Below are positions 7,727 to 61,700 of a stretch of 64,000 nt of DNA, piece by piece (position 1 is the stretch's first letter; the number at the start of each line of letters is the position of its first letter). Source of the stretch: Squalus acanthias. Lineage: Eukaryota. Below the pieces are notes generated by a model. That model was not told the DNA's origin and ran no database searches. It was given only the letters and a program-made list of their open reading frames with translations. The stretch covers positions 18,416,001-18,480,000 of the forward strand of contig CM059432.1 in the NCBI GenBank assembly GCA_030390025.1, in the 5' to 3' direction. Both the position numbers and the translations under genes were made by a program.

Positions 7727-9412
7727 CTGCTTTCCCCCTGAAAAAAATTGTATGCATTCCCCTCTCAAATACAATAAAACTATGGTCCCACTTTTCCCAG
7801 CATTACATGCACCACATAACAAAAACTCCTGGCTATTTTTCTTTTAACTGAACTACAAATCCAGTTTAATAACAGGTTTGCGGAGCCTTCCTGATCTCCT
7901 TACAGAAGGTTTTGGTGGAACCAATTTTCAGGTTGTTTTGTTTTGGTTATGAACTCAAAGATGATCCTGTTTCTATCTCAGACTTGTTTGAACCTGGTAC
8001 TTCAGTTACTGAAGTCTGAACTTCATGTATGTGTTCATGATCAAGTGGTTCAAGATCATGTGTTGATTCAGCTCTAGCAGAGATCATTTGATCTACATGA
8101 ACACTTCGGATGTTGTTATCAATTTCAACCAAATATCTCTTGGTTCCACCAACCTCAACTATAGTTCCTACATCCCACTTGTGTGAACTCGACTTTCCAG
8201 GGGGACTGAGAACACGAACACACTTGTTTTGTTTGAAACTAACTTCTTTCTGATTGCTGTCACAATACCGTTTCCAACTCAACTGTTTCTGTTCAACTCT
8301 TGAGGCCAAATTTGGTTGAACAAGACTCAATCGTGTTCTCAATCTCCTCTTCATCAAGAGTTCTGCTGGGGTATATCCAGTTGTAGTGTGTGAAGTAGTT
8401 CAGCACTCCAGCAAGAAATTTGCCAAATGTTGCTTCATGCTGAGTCCTGAACAACCCTGCAACACTTGCTTTTTGAGAGCTTCTTTCACTATTCTGACTG
8501 ACCTTTCGGCTGCTCCGTTTGAAGCTGGATGATATGGTGGAACTGAGAGTGTGTTTGATACTGTTCCATTTCATGAATTCTTGGAACAGAACAGAACGGA
8601 ACTGAGGGCCATTGTCAGAAACAAGCTCTTCAGGTAAGCCATGACATGCGAAGATAGACCTCAACTCATCTATGGTACGTTCAGTTGTAGTATTTGAACC
8701 CATGTGTTTTTCACTTCAATCCACTTTGAGTGCCTATCTACAAGTACCAGGAAATAATCATTTGCTTTCTCACAGAAGTCTACATGTACTCTCTGAAAAG
8801 GTCTACTTGGCCATGACCAGGGTTGTAGTGGAGTTTTGGGTGGTTTGTTTCTGCAATTTTGGAAAACGCTGCACTTGCTGACAAGTGATCAAGATCACTG
8901 TCCAATCCAGGCCAGTAAACAAAGCTTCTTGCAATTGATTTCATACTGACGATCGCTGGATGTTCAGTATGAAGTTCGGCCAGAATTCTATCAAAGAAGT
9001 AGGTACCAGCACTCTGTTTCCCCACTTGATACAGCCTTGCTCACAAGTCAATTCAGTACGACGGTTATGGAATGGTTTCAATTCTGTTTCCATACACTGA
9101 TCAGTCCACCCATTCAAGGTGTTTTCATACACTCTTTTCAGCACTGAGTCCTTTTGAGTCTCATTTGCAATCTCAGTTGCATTCACGGGAAAGTCTTTGT
9201 CAACTGCACCTGCGTGAAAATCTCACCTTCACTCCCAACACACGAGTCCTCACATGGCAACCTGGACAAGGCATCTGCGATTGCGATTTGCTTTGAAGTG
9301 CGATATTAAATCGTGTAGCAATATTGTGACAACAACACTGCCCAACGTTGCATTCTTGATGCGGCCATTGCAGGGATGGCAGATTTGGGCCTCCATATTG
9401 CTAGGAGCGGTT

Positions 9413-9627
9413 TGAATCACAGAATCACAGAATCCCCACAGTGCAGATAGAGGCCATTTCGGCCCATCGAGCCTGCACCGCCACATATCCCACCCTATCC
9501 CCGTAACCCCACGTATTTAATCCCCCTAACACTAAGGGTCCATTTTTTTTTTTTATCATAGCCAAATCAACCTAACCTGCACATCTTTGGGCTGTGGGAG
9601 GAAACCGGAGCACCCGGAGGAAACCCG
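9413..9627 (-). mobile_element. 5'-truncated V-SINE (HE1-like) with CR1-type tail inserted in the Gypsy pol region
   Basis: V-domain-like CCTGCACATCTTTGGGCTGTGGGAGGAAACCGGAGCACCCGGAGGAAACCC; (ATTCTGTG)n tail and GGCCATTTCGGCCCATCG stem-loop. Confidence 0.8.
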
Positions 9628-15570: not shown

Positions 15571-16240
15571 GGGCTAGAAATTGGTCTGTGCAGCGCCCAT
15601 TTTTCAGCTGTTACTCAGACTACTAAGGCCCTAATATGGCAGGCAGGAAGTGTGCACACATTTCTGGCTGGAGGCCAGGGAAACCAGGCCTGAGAATTGC
15701 CTGCTAGGCCCAACCCAAGAAGGCAAGGAACTTACCTGAATGTGGAGTCAGGAGGAGGACCCATATTAAAGGAATCAATCGCTGCCGCTCTCTCCTGAAT
15801 CTCCCCGCCTCATCCCCCCGATACCCGGCACCCCCAACCCGATCCCCAGCACTGATGCCGGACCTCCTGATCCATGGCCCCCCGATCACCTGCCCACGAT
15901 TCCTGGCCTCTCCGATCCACGACCCTCGCGATCCCTGTCACAGATCTGACCCCTGGCCCTGATCCATGGCCTCGATCCCGGAACCGACACCCAGCCCCGA
16001 TCCTAGACCCGACCCCAATCCCAGACACGTTCCCCGACCCGACCTCAGCTCCTACCCCTGATCCCGAACATGCCTCCAAGCACCGATCCCTGACCCACGC
16101 CCATGACTTGGCTTTGATCCCAGACCCGACCTCCGGCTCTGACCCACGGCCCGACCCCTGACCCGACCCCCAGACCCACTTATCTGAGGGCAGCTCCGAT
16201 GGTATCAGCGTCCCAATCTTGCACTCCTCATCGCTGGTGG
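15571..16240. mobile_element. Partial MITE-like element with a low-complexity CCCGATCC/CCCGACCC core
   Basis: Starts GGGCTAGAAATT; shares TAAGGCCC..AT/AATGGCAGGCAGGAAGTGTGC with the 48593 element. Confidence 0.55.
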
Positions 16241-16688
16241 GCTCTTATCACTATTCAGGCATTGGGAATGTTGGAATCGAGGCGTTGCTTAACCGGGGGC
16301 CAATGTAGGTCAGCGAGCACAGGGGAGATAGGCGAACGGGACTTGGTGCAAGTTAGGACACGGGCAGCCTAGTTTTGGATGACCTCAAGTTTACATAGGG
16401 TAGACTGTGGGAGGTGGGTGGGTATAGATTTCTCAGTAGCTTGATTGGAGACTCTTAATTTTGATTATTGGTTTCTACGCATGTCAGATGTCTGGCTAGC
16501 ACCGCTCCACCCACCACCACCACCCCCCTTCCAAAATTGTATGTTGCAGTTTGAATGCATGTTCTACTAAAGTATAGGTATGTATGATACGCTATCAATG
16601 AGCTGTACAGATGGGTTTTCTCACCCTCTCCAGGATCCAATGAGCTCTCTGTGCAGGGTGCAATCCTGGCAGGGAGCTTGGAATAAAT

Positions 16689-17452
16689 GGCCCAGAAATT
16701 CGGCACTTGCCGGGTGAGTACACAGCGTGTACTCACCCGTAAGGCCACTTGAAGTGCCGGTTTCCTGCATGCACTGCGCATGCGCGGGAAACCGGAACTT
16801 CCGGTCTCGTGAAGGGAGGGGTTCAGAGGTGGACCGCGTGCGCGGGAGAGGCTGCGCGCACGTAGCGAACTTTGGTTTTTTTTCAGGTTTCTCCAGGAAG
16901 GTAAGTATGGAAGAAGCTGCGCTTTTAAAAAGGAGGCGCAAGGCCTGTTTTTAACAAGGTAAGTGGTTAATTAATTACAATTTAAACATTTTTTCAACAG
17001 GTTTATCTTTTTTAGATACTTTAAAGAAAGGTAAGTTTATTTTTAGCACCGTTAAAAAGTATATTAATTTTTTCAAAAATTTAAATTTTTGTTTAAAGTA
17101 ATTAATTTATTTAACTTATAGTTATTTTAAAAATGTGATGATTTTAAAAAAATTTATTTGAAGTTTAGGTGTTGTTTTGGGGCCGATTTCAATTCATAGA
17201 TTTGACAGGTCTTCCTGTCAAATCTATGAATGAAAATGCCCTGCTAGGATTGGCTCTCCATGGCCCACGTGATCCCAGGGGACGCTTCGAACTAACTGCG
17301 CCCCTGGGACACGCAAGCACTGCGCACCGGCAGCTGGCGGAGGCCCAGGACCCGAAGTCCTCGTGGGCCCAAAGCACAACGGCAGGCGCGGTAGGTAAGT
17401 ACACGCACAATGCTTGCACCCGCAGGAAGCCGGAAAACCAAATTTCTGGCCC
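16689..17452. mobile_element. Non-autonomous Harbinger-type MITE
   Basis: TIR GGCCCAGAAATT / AATTTCTGGCCC, 3-bp TSD AAT on both sides, GC-rich arms around an AT-rich core. Confidence 0.8.
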
Positions 17453-24811: not shown

Positions 24812-26042
24812 ATGGGTGCCACTTATGCTGCCTCACCTTGGACCTCAGATTCGGACCAAGATGAGCCCCAGCACCAACAACACCAGCCACACCAGCTAAC
24901 AGCAGCAACAACACCAGCAGCATTCTCCTCACCGACCTGATGCTACACAGGAGGGGATCAGCACAGGGGTGCACCTTGCCGGGGGCGATACCCCCAACAC
25001 AGGGTATATAGGCAGAGGATGAGCTTCCTGGTCATGACTGAACTGTAGTGCTTCAGGAGGCTCAGGCTATCGCGTCAGGTCATCGCAGACATTTATAGCT
25101 TGCTGGAAGAAGACCTACTGCCCGGAGGACCTGGTGGACACACCTTACCAGTGGCTGTCAAAGTCACCACCGCCCTCAACTTCTTTGCCTCAGGCTCCTT
25201 CCAGGGATCTGCAGCAGATATTTGCAGGATCTCGCAGTCGGCCGCCCACAAATGAATCACCCAGGTGACCAATGCCATGTTTCACAAGTCAGCCACTTAT
25301 GTAAAATTTGCCACTGATGAAGCCAGTGTTAATGATTGAGAGCTCAGCTTTGAGGCTCTAGCTGGCTTCTCATGGGGGCAGGGTGTCATCGACTGCGCAC
25401 ATGTGCCCATTAAGGCACCCCCAGATCACCCAGGAGTGTTTGTGAACCGGAAGGGCTTCCACTCCCTCAATGTGCAGCTCGTCTGCAACCATAAAAAGAT
25501 GATCATGCATGTGTGTGCCCGATTCCCTGGGAGCTGTCATGACTCTTTCGTCCTGTGCCAGTCCACATCCCTCAGCTCTTTGAACCTCCAAACAGACTTA
25601 CCGCTGGCTGCTCGGAGACAAGGGCTATCCACTGAAGACGTGGCTGATAACACATTTGAGAATGCCAAGCAATGAGGCCAAGGAGCGACATAATGAAAGC
25701 CACATGCCCACCAGATGTGACATAGAGCAAGCAATCGGCATACTAAAGGTACGCTTCAGATGCCTTGACAGATCTGGAGGAGCCCTTCAGTACACACAAG
25801 CCAGGGCCTCCAGAATCTTTGTCGTAAGCTGCGCGCTGTGCAACATAGCGCAGCAGCGAGCATTGGAGCTGCAGGAGGAGCAAGGCGCAGAGCGCACAGC
25901 TTCTTCTTCGGAGAAGGAGGAACAGGTGGAACATGAGGAGGAGGAGGAGGAGGAGGAACCTGAGGTGGAAATGGCACCAGCAGTGGCGCACATTGCTGCC
26001 CAGAAGGTCCGGGATGGACGCATAATGGCCCGGTTTACTTAA
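24812..26042 (+). pseudogene. Harbinger transposase pseudogene
   Basis: [52 protein letters not shown], acidic tail; stops and frameshifts. Confidence 0.9.
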
Positions 26043-28900: not shown

Positions 28901-29102
28901 TCATTGAATCCAGGAGCGGCTCACAACACCCCTGCTTCTCACTTTTTGGGCGAACTCCAGCCATACCCTCTTGGTTTCTCTGGCTGCTCTTTTCCTGCCG
29001 CTGCCAGGGAATGGGACCTCCCTGCGTGCTGACACCCTGGACCAGGACTTCCAGGGAGGCATCTGAGAACCTGGGCACAGCCTTCTGTCGCTGTGACTCC
29101 AT
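28901..29102 (-). pseudogene. Myb/SANT-like (Harbinger ORF2) first exon, frameshifted
   Basis: MESQRQKAVPRFSDASLEVLVQGV / KRVWLEFAQKVRSRGVVSRSWIQ; C-terminal remnant at about 26330-26540. Confidence 0.82.
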
Positions 29103-33333: not shown

Positions 33334-34106
33334 GGGGTAAAAATTGAGTCGCGCCCCATTTGGGGCGCTAACCTCGCCGGGGCGCGACTTTTAGCGCCCC
33401 GAAAAAATTAGCGGCCCCGCGCCGGAACTTCAGTGGTTGCGCCCCAAGAGGGAAGCGGGGCGCCACTGGAAGCACCCCGCATCCCTCTTGGGGCGCTGCG
33501 AGTGAATATCCTGGCGCTACGTGCCGCAGTGCCACGCGCTGCGGCACGTCGCGCCGCGGTATTGCAGGCCTTCCTCCCCTTCTTAAAGGGGAGGGACCCT
33601 GCGCAGCGCGAACCGGGGCCCAGCTGGGCCCCCAGGGATCGGGAGTGCCGGCAAAAGAGCCCGGCACTCAAGAGAAGTGCCAGGCTCTTGGAGCGCAGCC
33701 GGCACTTCACGGTGGGGGGGCTTCACGGGGGCCGGGGACAGCAACGGGGGCAGGTGCTGGCAGGCGGCCAGCAACAAAAATGGCCGCCTGCCACCTCCCC
33801 TTTAAATATCGCCGCCCCGGCCGCACGTACGCCTCCCTGAACCCGTCGGACATAGCGTCTGGCGGTAAATCAGGGGGCGCGACTGAAGATCACGGCCGGG
33901 GCGCGAGCGGGGTGCTGCGCACGGCGATGACGTCATCGCCGGCGGCGCAGCGCCACAGGGCGCTACCGGCTGCCGCCGCCGCTAACCTCCCACTAAATTT
34001 TTCGGGAGGCGTGGGCGGCGCTGCGCCCGGGCGTTAGCTGCTTTACGCCCCATTAGCGCCCTCTTAAGGCGCTAACGGGAGGCGCAAGCAGCTGAATTTT
34101 TCCCCC
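33334..34106 (-). mobile_element. GC-rich non-autonomous Harbinger (MITE) with ends of the 43177 family
   Basis: TIR GGGGTAAAAATT / AATTTTTCCCCC, TSD TAT; terminal sequences match 43177-47342 in reverse orientation. Confidence 0.9.
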
Positions 34107-34425: not shown

Positions 34426-35317
34426 GGGGTAAAAATTCAGTTGGTTGCGCCTCCCGTTAGCGCCTTAAGAGGGCGCTAATGGGGCGCAAAGCCGCTAACG
34501 CCCGGGCGCAGCGATGTTTGCGCCGCTCGGGAACTTAACTTGACATTGTGCGGCGGCGCTAAAACTTACCGCTGCGACCACCTGCGCGTGCAGATTGTGA
34601 CGTCATTCCATGGTGCAACGCCCTTGTGGCGCCCCGGAGCGGAAATTGAGTGGCGCCCCCTGCCTTACCGCCTGGCGCATCCAACGACCAGAAGACTGGA
34701 ACGCTATCAATCGCTGTGGGGCTGGGGGGGGCGCTATTTAAAGGGGGCCTCTTCCTGTCTTTTATTGTTGGTGGCATTTTTGAACTACGCATTCTGAGAG
34801 AGAGAGGGAGAGACTTCTGGAGAGATTCAACGTTGTGTGAAGGAGTTTTGGGTACTGAGCAGCACTTTGCAGGTTCATTTTGATTTGCCATTCCTTGTAT
34901 CGATTTAGCAGAGACTGTGGGAGCTGCACTCTGAGCTCTTTGCCTGGTACTCTCCATTGTTCTTTCCAGCACATTTGATGTGCAAGTCTCTCCAGGCCGA
35001 GATTCAAGGCTGCAATGAACAGGATGTGGATGGAAAGCAAGATTAACCATCCCCTTTAAGAACTGGCCCGTGCCATTGTGTGTGTGTTCCATTGCTGACT
35101 GACATTACATGAGCTTCGCCAGCGCGCTGAGTTAGCGCCTCACTCCTTGGCCTTTGCGCCTTAAGACAGGTGTGCAGTGCTTGCTTTAGCGCTCCACTCA
35201 CCTCCCGGGGTGGTAAAAGTGAAGTTTCCAGTCAGTGCCGATAATTAGCGCCAGGCGCTAATATTTGCGTCCAGACGATATTTGCGCCCCAAATGGGGCG
35301 CGACCTAATTTCTACCC
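34426..35317 (+). mobile_element. Internal-deletion derivative of the autonomous Harbinger family
   Basis: First about 400 bp match 43177-43600 and last about 330 bp match 47005-47342; TSD TAT; no ORFs. Confidence 0.92.
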
Positions 35318-40807: not shown

Positions 40808-40953
40808 CTTGTTTCTCTCCCCACGGATGCTGCCTGACCTGCTGAGTGTTTCCAGCATTTTCTGTTGTTATTTCAGTAAAATGTTTAACTGATTTTTTTA
40901 ACGCTAGGTGGAGTTTTACTCCCATTCTAAAATGTGTTTATGAAAACAGAGTG

Positions 40954-41420
40954 ACTGCAGCCAACGAACCGGAAGCTGCTGCCAACGAACCAGAAGCTGC
41001 TGCCACAGAACCGGAAGCTGCTGCCAATGAACCAGATCCTGCTGCCAAAGAACCGGAAGCTGCTGCCAACGAACCAGAACCTGCTGCCAAAGAACCGGAA
41101 GCTGCTGCCAACGAACCAGAAGCTGCTGCCAATGAACCAGACGCTGCTGCCAAAGAACCGGAAGCTGCTGCCAACGAACCAGAACCTGCTGCCAAAGAAC
41201 CGGAAGCTGCTGCCAACGAACCAGAAGCTGCTGCCAAAGAACCGGAAGCTGCTGCCAACGAACCAGAAGCTGCTGCCAAAGAACCGGAAGCTGCTGCCAA
41301 CGAACCAGAAGCTGCTGCCAAAGAACCGGAAGCTGCTGCCAACGAACCAGAAGCTGCTGCCAAAGAACCGGAAGCTGCTGCCAACGAACCAGAAGCTGCT
41401 GCCAATGAACCGGAAGCTGC
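40954..41420. repeat. Minisatellite, 22 x 21 bp (GCTGCTGCCAAHGAACCRGAA) with a 42-bp higher-order unit
   Basis: Units counted from the translation AAA[NK]EPE; no spacers. Confidence 0.97.
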
Positions 41421-41675
41421 GCAGACGTGTTCTGCGCATAAATCTGTGGTGGCTTAATTACTAATGTATAATAATATCATAATATTGCATAAATCTGTGG
41501 AATCTGCAGAGCTCGGGGTTTGTTCAATAGTGTATAATAATACCACCGGTTGGTTTAAGTATTGATGTATAATAATTTCGTGGGGCGAGGGTGGCGGAGA
41601 TTTATTTGTTTGGAGCGCGAGCTCCGTGTGAAGGGAAAGGAGAAGAAAATTAATAACAAGGGTTGTTTGGTGAAG

Positions 41676-42956: not shown

Positions 42957-43688
42957 ACCCTGGCACAGATTTTCTTTTCCTGGCGCGCATCTGTTCGGCA
43001 GCAGTGATCTGTTTTTCCCACCCCCTTCCCTCCTTTCTCGCCCTGGAAGTGTGTTCTTTGTGATAGCGACAATATTTTCTTTTCCGTTAGCGAACAACCC
43101 AAAAAAAAACCACTGAAACTGCGCGTGCGCAGCGACTTCATCCTGTTAGCAGCAGTCACGTCCTCATAGAGTCATAGGGGTAAAAATTCAGTTGGTTGCG
43201 CCTCCCGTTAGTGCCTTAAGAGGGCGCTAATGGGGCACAAAGCCGCTAACGCCCGGGCGCAGCGATGTTTGCGCTGCTCGGGAACTTAACTAGACATTGT
43301 GCGGCGGCACTAAACTTTACCGCTGCGACCACCTGCGCGCGCAGATTGTGACGTCATTCCATGGTACAACGCCCTTGTGGCGCCCCGGAGCGGAAATTGA
43401 GTGGCGCCCCCTGCCTTACCGCCTGGCGCATCCAACGACCGGAAGACTGGAACGCTATCAACCGCTGTGGGGCTGGGGGGGGGCGCTATTTAAAGGGGGC
43501 CTCTTCCTGTCTTTTTCTGTGGTTGACATTTTTGCACCACTCGTTCTGAGAGAGAGAGAGAGATTCGGAGAGAGAGAAAGAGAGACTTCTGCATTGAGTC
43601 AACGCTTTGTGAGGTAGTTTTGCCTGCTGATCCTAACTTCGCTGCAACTTTGGTTGCTGTCCTTCATTACTTTGCTTGCAAAGAGACT

Positions 43689-44849
43689 ATGGGGGCTGCA
43701 CTGATTGGGGGCGTCGTCCTGCTCCAGCTGAATCGGAGGACACAGAGACGCAGAGAGAGAGTGGCAATGATGGCCAGACGGAGGAGGGCCAACAGGCATA
43801 TGTACAGGAGAGCTTACCCTCCCAGGGTATATCGTGAACAGCTCTCCTACATTCATATGTCTGAGGAGCTGTGTTTGCGAAGGCTGCGATTCAGCAAGGA
43901 GGTGGTCACTGAGCTCTGCCACCTGCTGCAGCCAGATCTGCAGCCTCAACTGAGGTCCAGGACGTCTCTGTCGGTGGCAGTGAAAGTCACAGTGGCTCTC
44001 AACTTCTATGCTACTGGCTCATTTCAAGCTGCTGCTGGGGACCTCGCCAATATCTCCCAGTTCGCGGTGCATTGCTGCATCCCGCAGGTAACAAATGCCC
44101 TCTTTAAAAGGAGACGAGAGTTCATCTCTTTCCCCATGACCCCAGACAAGCAGCGTGACCGCGCTCTGGGCTTTGCGAGGATAGCGGGCTTCCCCATGGT
44201 GCAGGGCGCCATTGACTGCACGCATGTGGCTTTGCGTGCTCCACATGAGAATGCCGAGGAATTCCGGAACAGAAAGGGGTTCCATTCCTTGAATGTTCAG
44301 TTGGTCTGTGACCACAGACAGCTGATACTCGCTGTCAATGCCCAGTATCCTGGCATCTGCCACGATGCTTTTATCCTGCGCCAGACTACTGTGGCAGAAC
44401 TTTTCGAGGCACCGCATCAGCCAGTTGGTTGGCTTCTCGGGGACAAGGGGTATCCATTGAGCACCTGGCTGATGACACCGCTCCGTACGCCCAACACCCC
44501 TGCTGAGCTGCGGTACAATGAGAGCCATCAAGCTACCAGGAACATCATTGAGCGCACAATCGGCGTGCTGAAGCAACGGTTCCGCTGTCTCGACCATTCT
44601 GGAGGAGCCCTGCAGTACTCGCCTGAACGAGTATCCAACTTCGTAGTTGTGTGCTGCATGTTGCATAACATGGCAGTCGTCAGGACCCAGCCAATGCCAC
44701 CAGGCCTTGGAGCACCACCAGAGGAGGAGGAAGAAGAGGAGGAAGAGGACGAGGAGGATGATCATCAGCAGCACCAAGGCGGGAGGGCGGCCCACAATGG
44801 TGAAACTGCAAGGGCCGTCCGTCAACGGCTGATAGCAAGCCGCTTCTAG
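43689..44849 (+). CDS. Harbinger DDE transposase (HARBI1-like family), 386 aa
   Basis: First ATG at 43689; [54 protein letters not shown], acidic tail; no stops. Confidence 0.95.
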   Translation: MGAALIGGVVLLQLNRRTQRRRERVAMMARRRRANRHMYRRAYPPRVYREQLSYIHMSEELCLRRLRFSKEVVTELCHLLQPDLQPQLRSRTSLSVAVKVTVALNFYATGSFQAAAGDLANISQFAVHCCIPQVTNALFKRRREFISFPMTPDKQRDRALGFARIAGFPMVQGAIDCTHVALRAPHENAEEFRNRKGFHSLNVQLVCDHRQLILAVNAQYPGICHDAFILRQTTVAELFEAPHQPVGWLLGDKGYPLSTWLMTPLRTPNTPAELRYNESHQATRNIIERTIGVLKQRFRCLDHSGGALQYSPERVSNFVVVCCMLHNMAVVRTQPMPPGLGAPPEEEEEEEEEDEEDDHQQHQGGRAAHNGETARAVRQRLIASRF

Positions 44850-45161
44850 GGCCCCTGCTGTGGAAATGGCTTCTGCCATTGCTAACAACATCAATGAACC
44901 CAGCACGCAAACCCTAAGCCGGCCAAGGCACCAATAATTCCAAACACCAAACATGTATATTTTGAATACAGAAACTTATTTATTTTACAAACTCTGTGTG
45001 TGTCAATTCCTCATGACAAACTCATAGAAATAAACACACAAAAACACACAATAACATAACTGGTTCTCACAACCTGGAGATAATGTCCAAAACACTAAAC
45101 AAAAGTTGGACCATGAACCTCGGCCTTTAATAAAAAAATGACCAGCATTTTGTCACACCTC

Positions 45162-46981
45162 CTACTTTTTGCCCTTCAAGGGTGATCTCCTTCCCTTGCG
45201 CACTTCCCCCCTTCTAACCCTACTGCTCCTCCGTAATAGGACCTCAGTGGCTGCAGCAAGGCTGGTGGAAGGCTGCTGATCGTCAGACCCTGACACTGCA
45301 GATGCCCCTGAAGGACGGCCTCGACCAGTTCTGGGCCTGGAGGGCCCGGCTGCAGACTGCACCAACTCTGCATGGGCGGCAGCAGTCTGTCCTACAGGCA
45401 GTGGCAAGTGCAGTGGAGAAGTGACAGTGTTGGCAGCAGGAATGCTGTCATCGTGAGAGAGGACAGCAACACCCTGCTCGCCCGACACACTGGCACTCCC
45501 ACGGGGCAGCACTTCAGCATCCGGAGCAATCTGCTGGAGAACAGATTGCTGGCCTGCTGCGGCGCGGTGAGAGCCCCGGGGACATGTGAACGAACCATCG
45601 AGGTTGGCAGCAGTCTGTGCTCGCGTGGCCTCAATCTGAGTCTGCATGAGAGCAGTCAGAGATGGGATCACGGCAGCCAGTGACTGAATTGCAGCACTAA
45701 GCATTAGTGTGGCATCTGCCTGTGCTACAGCGAAGTGCTCCACACTCCTTGCCAGTGACTCAATGCATTCGGGCACCCTTCCCACTGCACCCATGAGCTC
45801 AGTGTGCATGCCCACCGCCTGGGTGTTCATTTCTGCGATCAGCCGCTCCTCCTCTGCGTCCATTGCAGTAGGAGTCGCTGGCATACTCTCCCTCTGGGGA
45901 GAAGGCCCCCGTTCTTCCCTACCCCCATGGCGTTGCTGCAGCCCGATGGGTCCTGGAGCTTCACCCTCATCAGACCCTTCCCCCCTGCTCCCCTCCAGGG
46001 AAGGCGTGTTCCCAGTGTGGGCATGGGCTTCCTCAGGAGAGGGTGGCACTGATGCTCCGGCTTCCTCTTCCTCCTCAGCTGCAGCTTCACTCCCAGTGGC
46101 AGCTTCAGGGCCCATCTCCTCAGCTGGTGAATCACCATCTGAAAGCAGGGAGGTACAAGAGTGGCTTTAGCGTGAGGACAGGGTGGCAGTAAGGGAGGAA
46201 TAAGTGCAGCGAGTTAGCAAGTTGGATTGAAAGTGTCAAAGGCTGGTGTTGTGAGGGACAAGTGGAAGGACAGAGGACAAAAAGGTGATGACCTTACCAT
46301 TGCTGTCCAGAACGGGGTCGGCGTCTCCAGTGGCGACGGGACCGATCACCCGGCTTGCCACAATCCTGTGGACACGCTCCTCAAGATCGCTGAGGGGTTG
46401 CAGCTGAGGCCGCCCTCCACCTGTCCGTTGCTGCTGTCTCCGATTATGCGCCAGCTTGGCCTGCAAGTAAAAGGACAGCATCTGAGTAAATATACAGCCA
46501 TGGTCTTGCCTGATGTGCCTCCCATAGGTGAATAGCCCTTACTGTATGCAGCCATGGTCTTGCCTGATGTGCCTCCCATAGGTGAATAGCCCTTACTGTA
46601 TGCAAAGTGTGGAATGTGTGTGTGTGTTTCATGAAAGGGCCATAGGTGTTGGATGAGTGTTGTGCATTGGGGTTTTAAGACCCTCTGGCCATGGAGTGAG
46701 GTTGAGATGGAGGGATGGAGAGGTATTGAGAAAAAGCCACTCACCCTGACGACCTGAGTGAGGTCGTTGAACTTTTTGCGGCATTGAACATGGGTCCTGG
46801 GCACCATGCTCCTGGAGGAGACGCTCTGAGCCACCTCCCTCCACACTCTTCTGTACTCGCGTGGCAAAGGCCTCCTGCCACTCTCAGGGAAGAGTATACA
46901 TCTTTTGCGCTCCACCGCGCCAACCAGAGCATCCAAGGCCCGCTCGGTGAAGCGATGAGCTCGTTCTCTCACCCTCTCCAT
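45162..46981 (-). CDS. Harbinger ORF2 Myb/SANT (trihelix) DNA-binding protein; exons 46981-46745, 46460-46298, 46138-45162; 458 aa
   Basis: RFTERALDAL...VWREVA...RTHVQCRKKFNDL; GT-AG introns (GTGAGT/TTGCAG; GTAAGG/TTTCAG); phases 0 and 1 join into one frame; basic NLS-like C-terminus. Confidence 0.9.
46495..46602. repeat. Perfect 54-bp tandem duplication in ORF2 intron 1
   Basis: CAGCCATGGTCTTGCC...CTTACTGTATG x2. Confidence 0.95.
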
Positions 46982-47342
46982 CCTTGGCAGCAAAATGGAT
47001 TCACAGGTCTCTCCAGGCCGAGATTCAAGGCTGCAATGAGCAGGGTGTGGCTGGGGAGCAAGTTGCCCCCCCCCCCGCTTTAAGAACTGGCCGGCGCCAG
47101 TGTGTCTGTGTTCCCTCGCTAACTGGCAGCCCCTGCGCTGCGCTCGCGCGCTGAGTTAGCGCCTCACTGCTCGGCATTTGCGCCTTAAGACACGTGTGCA
47201 GCGCCTGATTTAGCGCTCCATTCACCTCCCGGGGCGGTAAAAGTGAAGTTTCCAGTCAGTGGCGATAATTAGCGCCAGGCGCTAATATTTGCGTCCAGAC
47301 GATATTTGCGCCCCAAACGGGGCGCGACCTAATTTTTCCCCC

Positions 47343-48425
47343 ATAGAGTTATACAGCACAGAAAGAGGCCCTTCGGCCCATCGTGTCCGCGCCGGCCATC
47401 AAGCCCTATCTATTCTAATCCCATTTTCCAGCACTTGGTCCGTAGCCTTGTATGCTATGGCGTTTCAAGTGCTCATCTAAATGCTTCTTGAATGTTGTGA
47501 GGGTTCCTGCCTCTATCACCCTTTCAGGCAGTGAGTTCCAGATTCCAACCACCCTCTGGGTGAAAAAGTTTTCCTCAAATCCCCTCTAAACCTCCTGCCC
47601 CTTACCTTGAAACTATGCCCCCTGGTGATTGACCCCTCTACTAAGGGGAAAATGTCCTTCCTATCTATCCTATCTATGCTCCATATAATTTTGTACACCT
47701 CAATCAGATCCCCCCTCAGCCTTCTCTGCTCTAAGGAAAACAACCCCAGCCTGTCCAGTCTCTCTTCATAGCTGAAGCGTTCCAGCCCAGGTAACATCCT
47801 GGTGAATCTCCTCTGCACCCTCTCCAATGCAATCACATCCTTTCTATAGTGTGGCGACCAGAACTGCACACAGAATTCCAGCTGTGGCCTAACTAGCGTT
47901 TTGTACAGCTCCATCATAACCTCCCTGCTTTTATATCCTATGCCTCGGCTAATGAAGGCAAGCATCCCATATGCCTTCTTAACCACCTTATCTACCTGTC
48001 CTGTTGCCTTCAGAGATCTATGTACATGCACACCAAGGTCCCTCTGATCCTCTGTCCTTCCTAGGGTCCTACCATTCATTGTATATTCCCTTGCCTTGTT
48101 AGTCCTCCCAAAATGCATCACCTCACACTTTTCAGGGTTAAATTCCATTTGCCACTGTTTTGCCCATCTGACCAACCCGTCTATATCGTCCTGTAGCCTG
48201 TGGCTTCCCTCCTCGCTATTTACCACTCCACCAATTTTCATGTCATCTGCGAACTTACTGATCATACCTCCTACATTCATATCTAAATCATTAATGTACA
48301 CTACAAACAGCAAGGGACCCAGCACCGATCCCTGTGGTACACCACTGGACAGAGGCTTCCAGTCACAAAAACAACCTTCGACCATCACCCTCTGCCTCCT
48401 GCCACTAAGCCAATTTTGGATCCAC
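47343..48425 (-). mobile_element. 5'-truncated CR1 whose tail (rest at 43165-43176) hosts the Harbinger
   Basis: ORF 47516-48388 (FADD, RPQLEFCVQFWSP). Confidence 0.93.
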
Positions 48426-52680: not shown

Positions 52681-54801
52681 AATCTTTTACATAGGATTAC
52701 ATAGGATATACAGCACAGAAACAGGCTATTCGGCCCAACCAGTCCATGCTGGCATTTATGCTCCACTCGAGCCTCTTCCCATCTTTCCTCATCTAACTCT
52801 ATCAGCATAACCCTCTATTCCCTTCTCCCTCATATGCTTATCTAGCCTCCCTTTAAATACATCTATACTATTCGCTTCAACCACTCCCTGTGGTAGCGAG
52901 TTCCACATTCTCATCACTCTCTGGGTAAAGAAGTTCCTTCTGAATTCTCTATTTGATTCCTTGGTGAATATCTTATATTGATGGCCTCTAGTTTTGCTCT
53001 TTCCCACAAGTGGAAACACTCTCTATCTACTCTATCAAAACCTTTCATAATTTTAAAGACCTCTATTAGGTCACGCTTCTTTTTTCAAGAGAAAAGAGAC
53101 CCAGCCTGTTCATCCTTTCCTGATAGATATACCCTTGCATTTCTGGTATCAGCCTTATAAATCTTCTCTGCACCCTCTCCAGTGCCTCTATATCCTTTTT
53201 ATAATATGGCGACCAGGACTGTACACAGTACTTCAAGTGTGGTCTAACCAAGGTTCAATACAAGTTTAGCATAACTTCTCTAATCTCTACTCTTCAATTC
53301 AATCCCTCCAGAAATAAACCATAGTGCTTGGATTTCTTTTTTATGGCCTTGTTAACCTATGTTGCTACTTTCAGTAATTTGTGTATTTGTACTCCAAGAT
53401 CCCTTTGCTCTTCTACCCCACTTAGATTTGTATTTTCCAAGTAATATGTGACCTCCCTATTTTTCTTACCAAAATGTAATACCTCACATTTATCTGTGTT
53501 GAATTTCATTTGCCCATTCTGCAAGTTTATTAATGTCTTCTTATAATTTGTTGCAGTCCTCCCTCAGTATTGACTATCCCCCCCCCCCAAATTTGGTGTC
53601 ATCTGCAAATTTAGAAATTGTGTTTTTGATTCCATAGTCTAAATCGTTAATATAAATTGTGAACAACAGTGGTCCCAGCACTGATCCTTCTGGAACACCC
53701 ATCTTCTGCCACACTGAATAGCTACCCTTTACCCCTACTCTCTGCTTTCTGTCTTGAAGCCAGCTAATTATCCATTCTGATACTTGTCCCCTGACTTCTT
53801 CATTAGTCTATTATGTGGTACCTTATCGAAGGCCTTTTGAAAATCTAGATAAATTACATCTACTGCATTACCCTTGTCTACTCTCTGTGTTACTCTTCAA
53901 AAAATTCAGTGAGGTTGGTCAAGCAAGACTATCCCTTTTGAAATCCATGCTGACTATTCATTATTATATTTTTGGTTTCTAGATGTTCTTCTATTTTCTC
54001 CTTTAGTAGGGATTGCATTATTTTTCCTACCACCGATGTTAAGCTGACTGGTCTATAATTCCCTGGACATGTTCTATCTCCCTTCTTAAATTTAGGTATT
54101 ACGTTAGCTTTCCGCCAGTCTTCTGGCACTATACCTTTTCTAACGAATTATTAAATATGTGTAGTAATGCCTCTGCTATCTCTTCCCTAGATTCTTTAAA
54201 AATTTGTGGATTTAACCCATCTGGACCAGGGGTCCTGGGGTTCCCTGGGTACCCACGGGTGGAGGCCCACATATTTCAGGAGTGCAGGCAGTTCGCGAGT
54301 GCCCCAGGATCATGTGGGCCGGACCAACGAATGATAGAAGGGAATCCCCATTCATACTTATGGGGATTCCGTATGTACAGAAACCCCATAAGCATGAATG
54401 GGAATACCCCAAAAAATACACCTAGACATCACATATTTAAAATTAATTAAAATGGTGTTTAATTAAATATTTAAAACAAAAATTTAATTTTTTGATAAAT
54501 AAATGTACATGTTTTAATGGGGCTAAAAATAAACTTACCTTATTTAGGCCCACAGAGGCGGCGGCGGTAAAAGGCGGCAGCGACCAGGTAGGCTTTCACC
54601 AAGCCGAGAGCAGGAGAGAGGTAAAAAATAATCGAAGTGTGACGTCACCAGAAAGCAGGTAAGTGATTGGTTGGTGAGTATTTCTCTTTTTTTTATACAA
54701 AACTTCAATTTTATTGTTTCTCGGGTATCTGTGGTGTAGCAGAGACTGCTGGCATAAATTAACTGAAGGGTAAATAATACATTTTTAATTAATTACATAG
54801 A

Positions 54802-55758
54802 ATGGGAGAGCAGGTGATGTGTTACTGCTGCAATATGTGGGAGCTGGTGGACACCATTGATGTTCACGGTGAACACATTTGCAGTAAGTGTTGGCTGCTC
54901 GAGGAACTCCGGCTCCGTGTTGATGAGCTGGAGTCCGAGCTTCAAACACTGCGACACATCAGGGAGGGGGAGAGTTACCTGGACTCCGTGTTTCAGGAGG
55001 TAGTCACACCAATTAGAGTAACTAATTCAGAAGTAGCCCGTGGTCAGGGACAGGAAGGTGTGACTACGAGTGAGGCAGGTACAGGGATCCAGGAGGTAGT
55101 GTTGGAGGAGCCGCAGCCCTTGCTCTTGTCCAACAGGTTCGAGGCTCTTACTCCCTGTGTGGATAGGAGCGGGGACTGCAGGGAGGATGAGCAACCTGGC
55201 CACAGCACCGTGGTAAGGGGGGCCATTCAAGTGGGGGGAGTAAAAAGAAATGTTGTAGTGGTAGGGGATAGTATCATTAGGGGGATAGATAGGGTTCTTT
55301 GCAGCCAAGAGCGAGAGTCCCGAAGGCTGTGTTGCCTGCCCGGTGCCAGGGTTAAGGACATCTCCTCTGGGCTGGAGAGAAACTTGGAGTGGGAGGGGGA
55401 GGATCCAGTTGGCGTGGTCCATGTTGGTACCAATGACATAGATAGGACAAGGAAAGAGGTTCTGCTGAGGGAGTTTGAGCAGCTAGGGGCCAAATTAAAA
55501 AGCAGAACCTCGAGGGTAATAATCTCTGGATTACTACCTGAGCCACGAGCAAATTTGGCTAGGGTAAATAAAATCAGGGAGTTGAATGCGTGGCTCAAAG
55601 ACTGGTGTGGGAAAAATGGGTTTTGCTTCTTGGGACACTGGCACCAGTACTGGGGCAGGAGAGAGCTGTTCCGTTGGGACGGACTTCACTTGGCCAGTGC
55701 TGGGACTAGTGTCCTGGCGAATCGAATAACTAGGGCTGTGGAGAGGGCTTTAAACTAA
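54802..55758 (+). CDS. CR1 ORF1p: zinc finger/leucine zipper plus SGNH esterase, 318 aa
   Basis: CxxC...CxxC, heptad leucines, GDS, PGAR, HVGTND, DGLH. Confidence 0.93.
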   Translation: MGEQVMCYCCNMWELVDTIDVHGEHICSKCWLLEELRLRVDELESELQTLRHIREGESYLDSVFQEVVTPIRVTNSEVARGQGQEGVTTSEAGTGIQEVVLEEPQPLLLSNRFEALTPCVDRSGDCREDEQPGHSTVVRGAIQVGGVKRNVVVVGDSIIRGIDRVLCSQERESRRLCCLPGARVKDISSGLERNLEWEGEDPVGVVHVGTNDIDRTRKEVLLREFEQLGAKLKSRTSRVIISGLLPEPRANLARVNKIRELNAWLKDWCGKNGFCFLGHWHQYWGRRELFRWDGLHLASAGTSVLANRITRAVERALN

Positions 55759-55796
55759 TTAGTGGGGGGGAGGTTTCAAGAGAGCAAAAAATAAAA

Positions 55797-58748
55797 ATGA
55801 CAACAGAGAGGGTCATAGACATAGGTAGCAGTAGGGGAATCACAAATCAGAGCGTGGCAGGAAGGGACAGAGTGTGTGGAGTAAAAGGTAAACTGGTAAA
55901 AAGTGAAAAAGCAGGAACTAAGTGCCACAAAGCATATTTGAAAGTTCTCTATCTGAATGCACGTAGCATTCGTAACAAAATAGACGAGTTAATGGCACAA
56001 ATAACTACATATGGTTATGATATTGTGGCCATTACAGAAACATGGCTGCAGGGTGACAATGCCTGGGAATTAAACATACCAGGTTATTTAACGATCAGGA
56101 AGGACAGGCAGGAAGGAAGGGGAGGTGGGGTGGCTATGTTAATAAAGGAAGGAATCACTGTAATACAGAGTAATGATATTGGGTCAAAAAATCATGATAA
56201 TGAAACAGTTTGGGTGGAGATAAGGAATAATAAGGGGAAAAAAACATTAGTGGGCGTAGTCTATAGGCCTCCGAACAGTTGCAACTCTATTGGACGGAGT
56301 ATCAATCAGGAAATAGTTGAGGCATGTAATAAGGGAACATCTATAATTATGGGGGATTTTAACTATCATATTAATTGGACAAATCAAATGGGGCAGGGCT
56401 GCCTTGAGGATGAGTTCATTGAGTGTATTAGGGATGGGTTTCTTGAGCAGTATGTAACTGAACCGACCAGGGGGCAAGCAACCTTAGATCTGGTCCTGTG
56501 TAACGAGACAGGATTAATTAAAAATGTCCTAGTAAAGGATCCCCTTGGAATGAGTGACCATAACATGGTTGAATTCCATATTCAATTAGAGGGTGAGAAG
56601 GTTGGATCTCAAACAAGCGTGCTAAGCTTGAATAAAGGAGACTATGAAGGTATGCGAGCGGAATTGAGTAGAGTGGATTGGGAAAATAGATTAAAGGGTA
56701 AGACGACACATGATCAGTGGTGTACATTCAAGGAGTTATTTTACAACTTCCAAAAAAAATATATTCCACTGAAAAGAAAAGGGTGTAAAAGAAAGGACAG
56801 TCATCCGTGGCTAAGTAAAGAAATTAAGGATAGTATTCGACTAAAAACAAGGGCATATAAGGTAGCGAAATCTAGTGGGAGGACAGAGGATTGGGAAAAC
56901 TTTAAAAGGCAGCAAAAAATAACAAAAAGATTGATTAAGAAAGGGAAGATAGATTATGAAAGTAAATTAGCAAAAAATATAAAAACAGATAGTAAGAGTT
57001 TTTATAGTTATATAAAAAGAAAAAGGGTGGCGAAAGTAAATGTTGGTCCCTTAGAGGATGAGACCGGGAAATTAATGGTGGGAAATATGGAGATGGCAAA
57101 AACACTGAATGAATATTTTGTATCAGTCTTTACAGTAGAGGACACTAAGAATATCCCAACACTGGACAAACAGGGGGCTATAGGGGGAGAGGAGCTAAAC
57201 ACGATCAAAATCACTAAGGAAGTGGTACTCGGTAAAATAATGGGACTCAAGGCGGATAAATCACCTGGACCTGATGGCTTACATCCTAGAGTCTTGAAGG
57301 AAGTGGCGGTAGGGATTGTAGATGCATTGGTAATAATTTTTCAAAACTCCCTGGATTCCGCTAAGGTCCCGGCAGACTGGAAAACTGCTAATGTAACACC
57401 CTTATTTAAAAAGGGCAGTAGACAGAAGGCTGGTAACTATAGACCGGTTAGCCTAACATCTGTGGTAGGTAAAATTTTGGAGTCCATTATTAAGGAAACA
57501 GTAACAGGACATTTGGATAATCATAATTTAATAGGACAAAGTCAGCATGGTTTTACGAAGGGGAAGTCATGTTTGACAAATTTGCTGGAGTTCTTTGAGG
57601 AAGTAACATATAGAGTGGATAAAGGGGAACCAGTGGACGTAGTGTATTTAGACTTCCAAAAGGCATTTGACAAGGTGCCACACAAAAGATTATTGCTTAA
57701 GGTAAAAAATCACGGGATTGGGGGTAATATTCTGGCATGGATAGAGGATTGGCTATCTAACAGAAAGCAAAGAGTTGGGATAAATGGTTCATTCTCAGGC
57801 TGGCAATCAGTAACTAGTGGTGTTCCACAGGGGTCAGTGCTGGGTCCCCAACTCTTCACAATCTATATTAACGATTTGGAGGAAGGGACCAAGTGTAACA
57901 TATCAAAATTTGCAGATGATACAAAGATGGGAGGGAAAGTAGTGAGTGAGGAGGACATAAAAAACCTGCAAGGGGACATAGACAGGCTAAGTAAGTGGGC
58001 AGAGATTTGGCAGATGGAATACAACACTGGAAAGTGTGAGGTGATGCACTTTGGCAGGAAAAATCCTAGAGCAATTTATTATCTTAATGGCAAGAAACTG
58101 GAGAGTACTGAAGTGCAAAGGGATCTGGGGGTCCTGGTGCACGAAACTCAAAAGGTTAGTATGCAGGTGCAGCAAGTGATTAAGAAGGCAAATGGAATGT
58201 TGGCTTTCATTGCTAGGGGGATAGAATATAAAAATAGGGAGGTATTGCTTCAGTTGTACAAGGTATTGGTGAGACCGCACCTGGAATACTGCATACAGTT
58301 TTGGTGTCCTTACTTAAGGAAAGACATCCTTGCTCTCGAGGCAGTGCAAAAAAGGTTCACTCGGTTAATCCCGGGGATGAGGGGGTGGTCATATGAGGAG
58401 AGGTTGGGTAGATTGGGACTCTACTCATTGGAGTTCAGAAGAATGAGAGGCGATCTTATTGAAACATATAAGATTGTGAAGGGGTTGGATCGGGTGGATG
58501 CGGGGAGGATGTTCCCGATGACGGGTGAGATGAGGACTAGGGGACATAGTCTTAGAATAAGGGGCTGCTCTTTCAAAACTGAGATGAGGAGGAACTACTT
58601 CACTCAGAGGGTGGTAGGTCCATGGAATATGCTGCCACAAAAAGCTGTAGAAGCTACAACATTAATTAAATTTAAAACAGAAATAGACAGTTTCCTAGAA
58701 GTAAAGGGCATTAAGGGTTACGGGGAGCGGGCAGGAATTTGGACATGA
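55797..58748 (+). CDS. CR1 ORF2p: APE endonuclease plus reverse transcriptase, 983 aa
   Basis: YLNARS, ITETWL, YRPP, GDFN, SDH; QHGF, DFQKAFD, GVPQGSVLGP, FADD. Confidence 0.97.
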   Translation: MTTERVIDIGSSRGITNQSVAGRDRVCGVKGKLVKSEKAGTKCHKAYLKVLYLNARSIRNKIDELMAQITTYGYDIVAITETWLQGDNAWELNIPGYLTIRKDRQEGRGGGVAMLIKEGITVIQSNDIGSKNHDNETVWVEIRNNKGKKTLVGVVYRPPNSCNSIGRSINQEIVEACNKGTSIIMGDFNYHINWTNQMGQGCLEDEFIECIRDGFLEQYVTEPTRGQATLDLVLCNETGLIKNVLVKDPLGMSDHNMVEFHIQLEGEKVGSQTSVLSLNKGDYEGMRAELSRVDWENRLKGKTTHDQWCTFKELFYNFQKKYIPLKRKGCKRKDSHPWLSKEIKDSIRLKTRAYKVAKSSGRTEDWENFKRQQKITKRLIKKGKIDYESKLAKNIKTDSKSFYSYIKRKRVAKVNVGPLEDETGKLMVGNMEMAKTLNEYFVSVFTVEDTKNIPTLDKQGAIGGEELNTIKITKEVVLGKIMGLKADKSPGPDGLHPRVLKEVAVGIVDALVIIFQNSLDSAKVPADWKTANVTPLFKKGSRQKAGNYRPVSLTSVVGKILESIIKETVTGHLDNHNLIGQSQHGFTKGKSCLTNLLEFFEEVTYRVDKGEPVDVVYLDFQKAFDKVPHKRLLLKVKNHGIGGNILAWIEDWLSNRKQRVGINGSFSGWQSVTSGVPQGSVLGPQLFTIYINDLEEGTKCNISKFADDTKMGGKVVSEEDIKNLQGDIDRLSKWAEIWQMEYNTGKCEVMHFGRKNPRAIYYLNGKKLESTEVQRDLGVLVHETQKVSMQVQQVIKKANGMLAFIARGIEYKNREVLLQLYKVLVRPHLEYCIQFWCPYLRKDILALEAVQKRFTRLIPGMRGWSYEERLGRLGLYSLEFRRMRGDLIETYKIVKGLDRVDAGRMFPMTGEMRTRGHSLRIRGCSFKTEMRRNYFTQRVVGPWNMLPQKAVEATTLIKFKTEIDSFLEVKGIKGYGERAGIWT

Positions 58749-61700
58749 GTCTAGGTTCGGATCGGTCATGGCCCTGTGGGTAGTGGAGCGGGCCCAGGGA
58801 CTGTGTAGCCTGATTCTGCTCCTATTTCGTGTGTGCAATTCTGTTAGATGCAGGAGATGGTTCTGTGATAGATAGTAGATTGGCGGTTAGGATCAGATCA
58901 GCCATGATCTTATTGAATGGCGGAGCAGGCTCGAGGGGCCGATTGGCCTACTCCTGCTCCTATTTCTTATGTTCTTATGTTCTTATGTTCTTAACAAGTT
59001 TTTAAATGTATAAATTATTGATAAAATTTTATTTTTCTGTTTTTTAAAACACTTACGCTGGTAAAATCAGGCCTTACGTTTGCTTTTACCAGGCGTAAGA
59101 ATTTCACGGCCATTCGCTGGGTAGAAGCTGGGCAAATAGCCCAACTCTCCACCCGCGGATGCCCCTTTCCCAGGGATGCGTTGGATTTGTCAAGAGAATG
59201 ATCACAAGTTTCGTGTTTTAGCACATGTGCTTCGCATGCCTAAACCTGGAACTTGCGCGGCCCCTACAGGCGCGCGCGCACCTCGTACACACCCTTAGGG
59301 GCCGCAAATTTCGGCCCAGTGTTTCTGCCATTCCTCTATCGCTGCCTGTGATATTATCCTGTCTTTCTAATTCTTTTTTTTACTTCTCTCCTAATCTCTT
59401 CATATTCTCTCTTGTCATGCTCTCCCCTGCTGTCCATGTAGTTAGTGTATGCCTCTTTCCTTAGCCTCCATTTTTCCCTTATGTCTTTACTCATCCATGG
59501 TGTCTCATTAGTGTTTAGGTTGTTCTTGTTTTTTAGCAGAATATATTTTTCCCGGACTCTGTTGAACACCATTTAAAATATTTCCCACTGCTGTTCTACA
59601 TCATTGTTTGCCAATATTGTTGTCCATTTTATTTTCCCAAGTTCTACTCAGCCTTGCAAAATTGGCTTTTCTCCAATCTATTACCCTGGTCTTCGTCATA
59701 CTTATGTCCTTCTCAATTATTATCTTGAAGCATATTATATTATGGTCACTATTGCATAGATGTTCCCCTACTTTTACTTCTTTTATCTGCTCTGGTTCAT
59801 TCCCCATTACTAGATCCAATAGCGAATCCTCCCTTGTTGGGCTTCTTACATATTGGGTTAGAAAGGAGTCCTGTAGACATTGTAGGAACTCCATTCCCTT
59901 ATCCCCTTTACCTACCTCTTCTGGCCAATCAATATTGGGGTAGTTGAAATCCCCATGATTATTATTCTATGTTTTTTACTAATTTCCCTAATTTGTTTGC
60001 ATATTTATTCCATCACCTCCCTTACACTATTAGGTGGTCTGTAGACTATCCCTATTAGTGTGATTGATTCTTTATTATCTTTTATCTCTATCCATATGGA
60101 TTCTATTTTTATCTTGCTGATAGCTGCGTCACTTTATGTTATCCCTAATAAGTACAGCGACTTCACCTCCCCTTTTTCCCTCTCTATCTTTTCTAAATAT
60201 GTTATACCCTGCAATGTTTAATTCCCAGTCCTGATTTTTTCATAGCCATGTCTCAGTAATCCCTATTATGTCTAGTTCCTCGCAACATATTATTGCCTCT
60301 AGTTCCCCTGTTTTATTATGGACACTGTGTGCATTGCTGTACAGACAGTTTAACTCATTTTTAACAGCAGTTCCTCTCACTTTATTCTTAACCAGCTTTT
60401 TACACTCCTGTTCTATAACTATTTATTCCCTGGCCATCAATGTCCTCCCTTACTTTATTATTTCCTATGCTCTCCTTTCCTGTTTTGTTTATATTTAGGT
60501 TGGTTTCATTTCTTGTAGATCCCTCCCTCCGTCTTACTAGTTTAAAGCTTTAGCCACCTCCCAATTTACCCTTTCCACTAGGACACGGGACGCATCCTGG
60601 TTCAGTTGGCGCCTGTCCCATCGGTTCAGCTCCTTCCTGTCCCAGCACTGGTGCCAGTGTCCCATGAAAAGGAATCCCTCTTTCCCACACCAGCCCTTTA
60701 GCCATGTGTTAATTCTCCTGATCTGATTGTTTCTATGCTAATTTGCACATGGCTCGGGCAATATCTATAGATTATTACCCTCGAGGTCCTGATTTTTAAT
60801 TTCGCTCCTAACTCCTGATACTCCCTCAGCAGGACCTCCTCACTGTTCCTACCTATGTTGTTTGTTTTGACATGGGCCACGTCAACTGGATTTACCCCCT
60901 CCCTTTCCAAATTCCTTTCCAGCTGCCTCGAGATATCCCTTACCCTTCAGGATTCTTGTTCATGGCTGCAGAGGATGCTATCTATCCCCTAATTATAGAA
61001 TCTCCTATCACTCCTACACTTCTATTCTACTCTTCCCCCCCCTTGGACAGCCTTCTGAGCCATGGTGCCTTGGTCTGCATTGTGGCTGTCTCAGCCGCAG
61101 TTTTTCTCCTTGTCCTCACAGGTAGCGAGTATGTTGTACCTGTTGGACAGGACCAGTGTCTGCGGGACCTCTTCTCAAACTCTCCGAAGTCCTCGCTATC
61201 CGGCTCCCTAACAGTCGCACCCTCCCTTTCCGGAAACTGTGCTTTCCTTTGGGGTGTGACTGTTTTCTCGATAAAACTATCCAGAAATTTCTCCCCCTCC
61301 CTTATGTTTCGGAGTGTCTCTAACTCACACTCCAGCTCAATGACTCTGAGCCGGAGTGACTGAAGGCAGAGATATTTCCTGCAGATGTGGGAATCTGGGA
61401 CAGTCTGGCTGTCCACAAACTCCCACATACTACAGTCCCGACACATAGCCTGCCCTGCCATCTCGAGACTTTATTTATTTACTTATTGTGTTGAAGGTCG
61501 GAAGCTCAGCTCGGGGTTGAATAGGATGCTGAGGTTGTGAACAATCTCGTTCAACCGGATATCAAACTAGTGAAAAGGAGGAACTATTATACATATATTA
61601 ATATCAGCATGGCTTCCTTTACCTGGATCATAGCAATTTTTAAATGTCAACATATATGCCACTTACCTTACAAATTGCAGAAAATTGGGCCCAAAGGTTG

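Follow-up and report, generated by a model that had tools for sequence, protein, structure and literature searches.

We analysed a window of 64,000 nucleotides from Squalus acanthias (GenBank assembly GCA_030390025.1, contig CM059432.1, positions 18,416,001 to 18,480,000) and focused on a two-gene Harbinger transposon at window positions 43177..47342 (4,166 bp). We conclude, with a probability of about 0.72, that this element is an aged full-length copy of a high-copy Harbinger family of a cartilaginous fish, and that the copy itself is probably inactive. The element carries a transposase gene and a convergent Myb/SANT gene (open reading frame 2, ORF2), arranged as follows.

43174..43176 (+): left target-site duplication (TSD) ATA, inside the microsatellite of a CR1 3' tail
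43177..43188 (+): left terminal inverted repeat (TIR), with 11/12 bases shared with the right TIR
43189..43688 (+): left subterminal region, with repeated motifs of the GCGCTAA/TTAGCGC type, a TATA-like box at 43487, a GA microsatellite and a CpG observed/expected ratio of 0.89
43689..44849 (+): Harbinger transposase of 386 aa (PF13359), with putative D176, D252 and E288, a copy-specific Ile223 and an unusual Pro132
44850..45161 (no strand): shared 3' region separating the two convergent genes, with candidate AATAAA signals at 45029 and 45129 (+) and at 44984-44979 (-)
45162..46138 (-): ORF2 exon 3, an open frame of low complexity with a basic C-terminal tail
46139..46297 (-): ORF2 intron 2, 159 nt, GT-AG, predicted from its splice ends and from a stop on retention
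46298..46460 (-): ORF2 exon 2, the end of the Myb domain and the next segment, ungapped with Pristiophorus gene model P0008 over the exon 1/2 junction
46461..46744 (-): ORF2 intron 1, 284 nt, GT-AG, with a tandem duplication of 54 bp inside it
46745..46981 (-): ORF2 exon 1, Myb/SANT-like domain (PF13873)
46982..47330 (-): right subterminal region and ORF2 upstream region, with repeated GCGCTAA-type motifs and a CpG observed/expected ratio of 0.86
47331..47342 (-): right TIR, pairing with the left TIR at 11 of 12 bases
47343..47345 (+): right TSD ATA, followed by the 3' untranslated region of a CR1-type long interspersed nuclear element (LINE), with the end of its reverse transcriptase frame at 47516 (-)

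The size of the family was estimated from read contigs of four of the 23 listed sequencing runs, which were compared with the element at 90% likeness. In the DNA run X2, 61,165 contigs span the whole element, including its coding body, at summed depths of 2e5-2e6, and 12 contigs mark single internal deletions or inversions at depths of 8-32. With overcounting of up to 31-fold taken into account, these data give a floor of approximately 234-1,806 copies, a rough figure that includes sister subfamilies and derives from depth, which is not equivalent to copy number. The family is thus high-copy, with roughly hundreds to thousands of copies, and the copy-number check proposed in a first-pass annotation of the window came out, by read-contig depth, in favor of a multi-copy family. 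Two related non-autonomous elements, or MITEs (miniature transposable elements with inverted repeats), lie in the same window.

33334..34106 (-): related MITE, with ends 92% alike over 88 bp and 80% alike over 65 bp, in another CR1 tail at the same phase, with an exact 3-bp TSD
34426..35317 (+): deletion derivative belonging to a sister subfamily, non-autonomous, with ends 93.5% alike (the first 397 bp of the element) and 83.8% alike, TSD TAT, outside CR1 tails

These two MITEs, 8-9 kb upstream of the element, were absent from the first-pass annotation, as were the location in a CR1 tail and the duplication within ORF2 intron 1 (positions 46491-46598, 98% identical). Runs X6-X18 (organisms A to E) contain 0.48-0.62 of the words of the element. 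Several majority letters of run X15 (organism D) are minority letters in X2, and X15 therefore carries a different subfamily mix. Horizontal transfer was considered, given that runs labelled as organisms B-E share 0.48-0.59 of the element's words and that X15 is 2.5% divergent; it is not claimed here, because X15 may represent a close relative or trace DNA. The small-share rows X19 and X20 were given no weight as evidence.

Comparison with the family majority revealed signs of age in the 43177 copy. Six high-depth X9 contigs (six of the eight listed, with two low-depth variants excluded) differ from it at 15 of 1,121 letters (1.3%), and all eight listed X15 contigs differ at 59 of 2,336 letters (2.5%), while a word share of 0.49 equates to 2.3% divergence. 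Overall, the copy is approximately 1.3-2.3% divergent from the family majority, and 1.3-2.5% from individual majority paths. Among 40 of the 240 difference rows, 23 have the other letter at a frequency of at least 85% in X2, and seven of these 23 correspond to CpG decay. Thirteen of the 23 are coding differences (eight replacement and five silent; p=0.33 against the replacement share of 0.75 expected under neutrality), so the coding changes in the copy are not different from neutral. Changes from C/G in the family to T/A in the copy predominate in both X2 (54 vs 30, p=0.012) and X15 (53 vs 29, p=0.011), in counts that take in about 330 bases of flank. As divergence rises from 0.8 to 2.3%, the probability that neither frame acquires a stop codon falls from 0.52 to 0.15; since 15-52% of equally decayed copies would keep both frames open, the open frames are no proof of activity.

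A substitution specific to the 43177 copy was identified in a conserved motif of the transposase. At position 44356, the family encodes Ser at 430,684 of 430,771 summed depth in X2 (99.98%) and at the entire depth in X9 and X15; Ile223 therefore belongs to this copy. The corresponding column contains Ser in 98 of 113 homologues and Ile in none. Among the 51 of 120 homologues that keep D176, D252 and E288, residue 223 is Ser in 44 of the 49 that align, with two gaps. By this comparison, residue 223, within the PGSxHD motif, appears as conserved as the catalytic residues, and the transposase of the 43177 copy is probably impaired because Ile223 falls in that motif. A copy-specific change at a conserved residue is not expected in an active element. 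Pro132 is likewise absent from all 113 homologues, and thus unusual among them, and lies within a predicted helix (residues 124-140); its codon is outside the 40 of 240 rows on which copy-specificity was judged. The first-pass annotation had flagged YPGICHD as possibly disabling, and the substitution at the conserved PGSxHD is copy-specific; the conservation of the residue makes an impairment probable. Its suggestion of a naturally intact, possibly active element usable as a tool is weakened by Ile223 and by the 1.3-2.3% divergence with its decay bias.

The identity of the element as a full-length two-component Harbinger is well supported. The transposase matches PF13359 (DDE_Tnp_4) with E=5e-39 and is unbroken over 386 aa, as previously annotated, with the motifs IDCTH, GDKGY and IERT at residues 175, 251 and 287, and YPGICHD at residue 220. 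We take the first three to mark the DDE triad sites D176, D252 and E288, an assignment based on motif positions and predicted secondary structure; these putative sites are conserved in 84%, 81% and 65% of homologues, respectively. The best 76 of the 120 homologues listed are all from sharks and rays. The best of those listed are Pristiophorus japonicus P0001 (66% identity) and P0002 (61% over the full length), database entries labelled 'putative nuclease HARBI1', which are automatic labels on automatic gene models. No database protein was more than 66% identical to the transposase, and the family itself was not found at the protein level. The structure model of the transposase is confident (pLDDT 89). 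A sequence search for solved structural relatives gave four weak matches and no relative, and a Foldseek search with the model gave no match at E<=0.001, with weak matches to DDE integrases and transposases.

ORF2 is predicted to be spliced from three exons into a product of 458 aa, and its exon 1 matches PF13873 (E=2.7e-9). Of 12 exon-boundary combinations tried, one gave both GT-AG introns and an open frame. Intron 1 is supported because the spliced form aligns ungapped with the N-terminal part of P0008 (109 aa, 45%, 93.6 bits), whereas the match of the unspliced frame ends at residue 79 (60.8 bits). Retention of intron 2 introduces a stop at codon 154. Exon 3 had no homologue among 8,000 candidates, and intron 2 therefore rests on its GT-AG ends and on this stop; exon 1 had one longer homologue among 182 candidates. 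The three-exon model proposed earlier is thus supported by its GT-AG introns and, across the intron 1 junction, by the homologue P0008, its junction numbers (46745/46460 and 46298/46138) being exon-terminal bases. No joint at the predicted introns was observed in the four runs (15 of 20 joints listed). Intron bins in run X9 are covered as deeply as exon bins, so that this run behaves like DNA, and run X21, the sole raw RNA run among those used, yielded 33 reads, all in the GA microsatellite. The absence of splice joints is therefore no evidence against splicing.

The element ends at 43177 and 47342 were placed correctly in the first-pass annotation, with ATA on both sides. The TIRs, described there as near-perfect, are present, and are short and imperfect (11/12 bases, or 13/16 over a longer span). 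The candidate poly(A) signals were found where reported (45029 and 45129 on the plus strand, and TTTATT at 44979 as the minus-strand candidate), as was the cyclic AMP response element (CRE)-like 8-mer TGACGTCA at 43349 in the left subterminal region, a candidate regulatory site. The GCGCTAA-type motifs repeated at both ends are candidate Myb-binding sites. The CpG observed/expected ratio is high at the two ends (0.89 and 0.86), lower in the whole element (0.55) and exon 3 (0.38), and 0.0 in intron 1. With flanks at 0.55 and 0.40, the whole element is not above its left flank, and the earlier statement of well-preserved CpGs holds for the ends and is overstated for the element.

In analogy to other two-gene Harbingers, the Myb/SANT protein would bind the element ends and partner the DDE transposase, which would excise the element and reinsert it, duplicating 3 bp of target. 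Full-length elements and deletion derivatives of the family have both multiplied, and the family may favor near-symmetric GA(G/C)TC-ATA/TAT-GA(G/C)T sites, plentiful in CR1 tail microsatellites, as suggested by a few insertions. The 43177 copy would then have decayed neutrally by about 1-2%, its frames remaining open by chance, and it gained Ile223 in PGSxHD. Its ends may still be mobile in trans.

Several observations weigh against an aged and inactive copy. The direction bias in X9 is non-significant (49 vs 36, p=0.19), and Logan contigs lose rare variants. The transposase retains each of the 31 columns with a conservation of 90% or higher, as well as D176, D252, H225, D226 and E288, its structure model is confident, and the presumed harm from Ile223 is deduced from conservation. 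The window species could also differ from organisms A, B and D of the sampled runs; the 'private' letters might then be the mark of a subfamily confined to that species. These observations bear on an alternative that we regard as unlikely, in which the 43177 copy still works as an autonomous element and moved recently, Ile223 and Pro132 being either tolerated or markers of a subfamily that is young in the species of the window. Consistent with this alternative, both frames are open, the catalytic residues are kept, the TSD is exact and the ends are CpG-rich. At 43646, 44090 and 47131, no X2 contig has the window's letter, and one X2 contig of depth 5 spans the left flank to 43185 (6 differences, 6 clipped letters) and may represent an empty site, as would fit if the insertion were young or the species another one. 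Against it stand Ile223, found in none of the 113 homologues and essentially absent from three runs, together with the deamination bias, the neutral-looking replacement/silent ratio and the lack of RNA evidence.

A further explanation for the open frames is that the copy is undergoing domestication as a host gene pair, comparable to HARBI1/NAIF1 or MSANTD. Harbinger domestication in vertebrates has been published (PMC9392472), ORF2 is predicted to be spliced, and relatives are labelled 'putative nuclease HARBI1'. We consider this very improbable, given the automatic nature of those labels, the intact TIRs and TSD, the high-copy family, the repeat-rich surroundings with insertion into the tail of a LINE, and the neutral-looking changes. 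An aged, probably inactive copy thus remains our preferred explanation.

The insertion site was then compared with those of the two MITEs. Removal of the element and one ATA restores a CR1 tail repeat at 43174, and the MITE at 33334-34106 is inserted in the same microsatellite phase and orientation in another CR1 tail. Two of the three family insertions in the window are therefore in the CR1 tail microsatellite at the same phase, and the third (34426) is outside. Of seven CR1 frame ends examined, three have this type of tail, and two of the three are occupied. The motif TC-ATA-GA or TC-TAT-GA fits approximately 13 of the 9,956 WWW sites in the window (11 counted and two occupied), and the chance that two of three insertions fall on it is approximately 5e-6, for a motif picked post hoc. 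In addition, an X15 contig links the right end (47342) to the left end (43177) via 11 letters of the same microsatellite at the same phase; it can be read as a pair of insertions spaced by one repeat unit, in the opposite orientation. The near-palindrome GA(G/C)TC-ATA/TAT-GA(G/C)TC would suit a symmetric transposase complex.

Based on these sites, we tentatively propose, as an idea somewhat more probably wrong than right, an elasmobranch Harbinger lineage that is target-selective for GA(G/C)TC-ATA/TAT-GA(G/C)TC in CR1 tails. These tails would provide a harmless and abundant landing site, the TSD would fall outside the described PHIS groups, and intact, possibly active copies would persist in several species, the family being approximately 98% alike in runs labelled with five organisms. 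The alternative, which approaches an even chance, is that the CR1-tail insertions only reflect how common such tails are, together with a weak preference for C-WWW-G, with no real long target preference. CR1-group elements are reported to account for 22-34% of the genome in elasmobranchs (PMC13343379), the sample comprises three window sites, one of them (34426) outside CR1 tails, and near 51374 an unoccupied CR1 tail carries the same microsatellite. The low chance value for the post hoc motif argues against mere abundance, as does the independent X15 junction, in which 11 bases separate the two element ends. In the literature covered, which misses most subscription journals and Repbase, neither this family nor a targeting of CR1 tails was found described.

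With a DDE_Tnp_4 transposase, a Myb/SANT gene, TIRs and a 3-bp TSD (exact also at both MITEs), the element belongs to the broadly defined Harbinger superfamily and is assigned here to none of the TSD-defined subgroups. The PHIS groups described in the text of PMC4482050 have TSDs of TWA (PIF/Harbinger), CWG (NuwaI), TNA (NuwaII) and ANT (Pangu), and ATA/TAT fits none of these, although the supplements of that paper may list such families. None of the three window insertions has the TWA of the narrow PIF/Harbinger group (Han et al. 2015), the CWG of NuwaI or the TNA of the NuwaII target C|TNA|G, whose flanking C and G are present at two of the three. The element resembles NuwaI and NuwaII in its DDE and Myb/SANT ORFs, its short TIRs starting with GG/GGG and its size class of about 4.2-4.7 kb, and its C|ATA|G is one mismatch from the NuwaII target (PMC4482050). 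Families with two intact ORFs in that study number 88 for PIF/Harbinger, 11 for NuwaI and 22 for NuwaII. The chondrichthyan 'putative nuclease HARBI1' proteins share a DDE_Tnp_4 domain with an acidic tail, and their Myb partner is collinear over intron 1.

Among characterised systems, the reconstructed zebrafish Harbinger3_DR, compared here through its description in a review (PMC3016246), is likewise a two-gene vertebrate Harbinger with a 3-bp TSD, which is CWG there and ATA/TAT here. Harbinger3_DR prefers the 15-bp palindromic target AAACACCWGGTCTTT (PMC3016246), and a long target preference is therefore not new for the superfamily. Harbinger-Snek of sea kraits is similar in being a vertebrate Harbinger of high copy number, whose intact copies of full length (269 in Laticauda colubrina and one in L. 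laticaudata) occur alongside non-autonomous derivatives; it differs in its RNA coverage of both genes (in L. laticaudata) and in the case made for horizontal transfer (PMC8437027). The first-pass annotation is upheld for the full-length two-component structure of the element; naturally intact Harbinger copies in a vertebrate have already been reported (PMC8437027). Harbinger transposition is described as requiring both proteins, the Myb-like protein binding the ends and the transposase (PMC9179366), and ongoing Harbinger movement has been reported in a nematode (PMC13668399). The same 2022 survey (PMC9179366) reports zero Harbinger elements in the elephant shark and calls for checks in other cartilaginous fish, and a single sentence in PMC12498223 names Tourist/Harbinger as the commonest DNA transposons of a shark genome.

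Other repeats are widespread in the window. Three broken Harbinger transposase relics with 38-57% identity lie at 1039-1404, 3143-3505 and 24989-25889 (+), and a Myb exon relic lies at 28904-29026 (-). TIR-bounded Harbinger-like elements at 15571-17452 (with a second left end at 16689) and 57720-59111 have TSDs of AAT and ATT, compared with ATA/TAT in the family. CR1-type LINE frames are abundant across the window; a full-length-looking example at 54793-58748 (+), putatively of the CR1 family, has open ORF1 (321 aa) and ORF2 (1004 aa) frames, measured from stop to stop. Broken gag/pol pieces at 7947-11463 (-), with a zinc knuckle, protease, reverse transcriptase and integrase-like region, presumably derive from a long terminal repeat (LTR) retrotransposon. 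Tandem units of the 21-bp type at 40938-41464 contain long open low-complexity frames on both strands.

Shark Harbingers have been little described. A single intact-looking copy matters little by itself, since it is expected in a high-copy family and known in other vertebrates. If the target preference is true, the family would represent a DNA transposon that lands in retrotransposon tails, with a new type of TSD, and its majority proteins would be reasonable candidates for a sequence-biased integration system.

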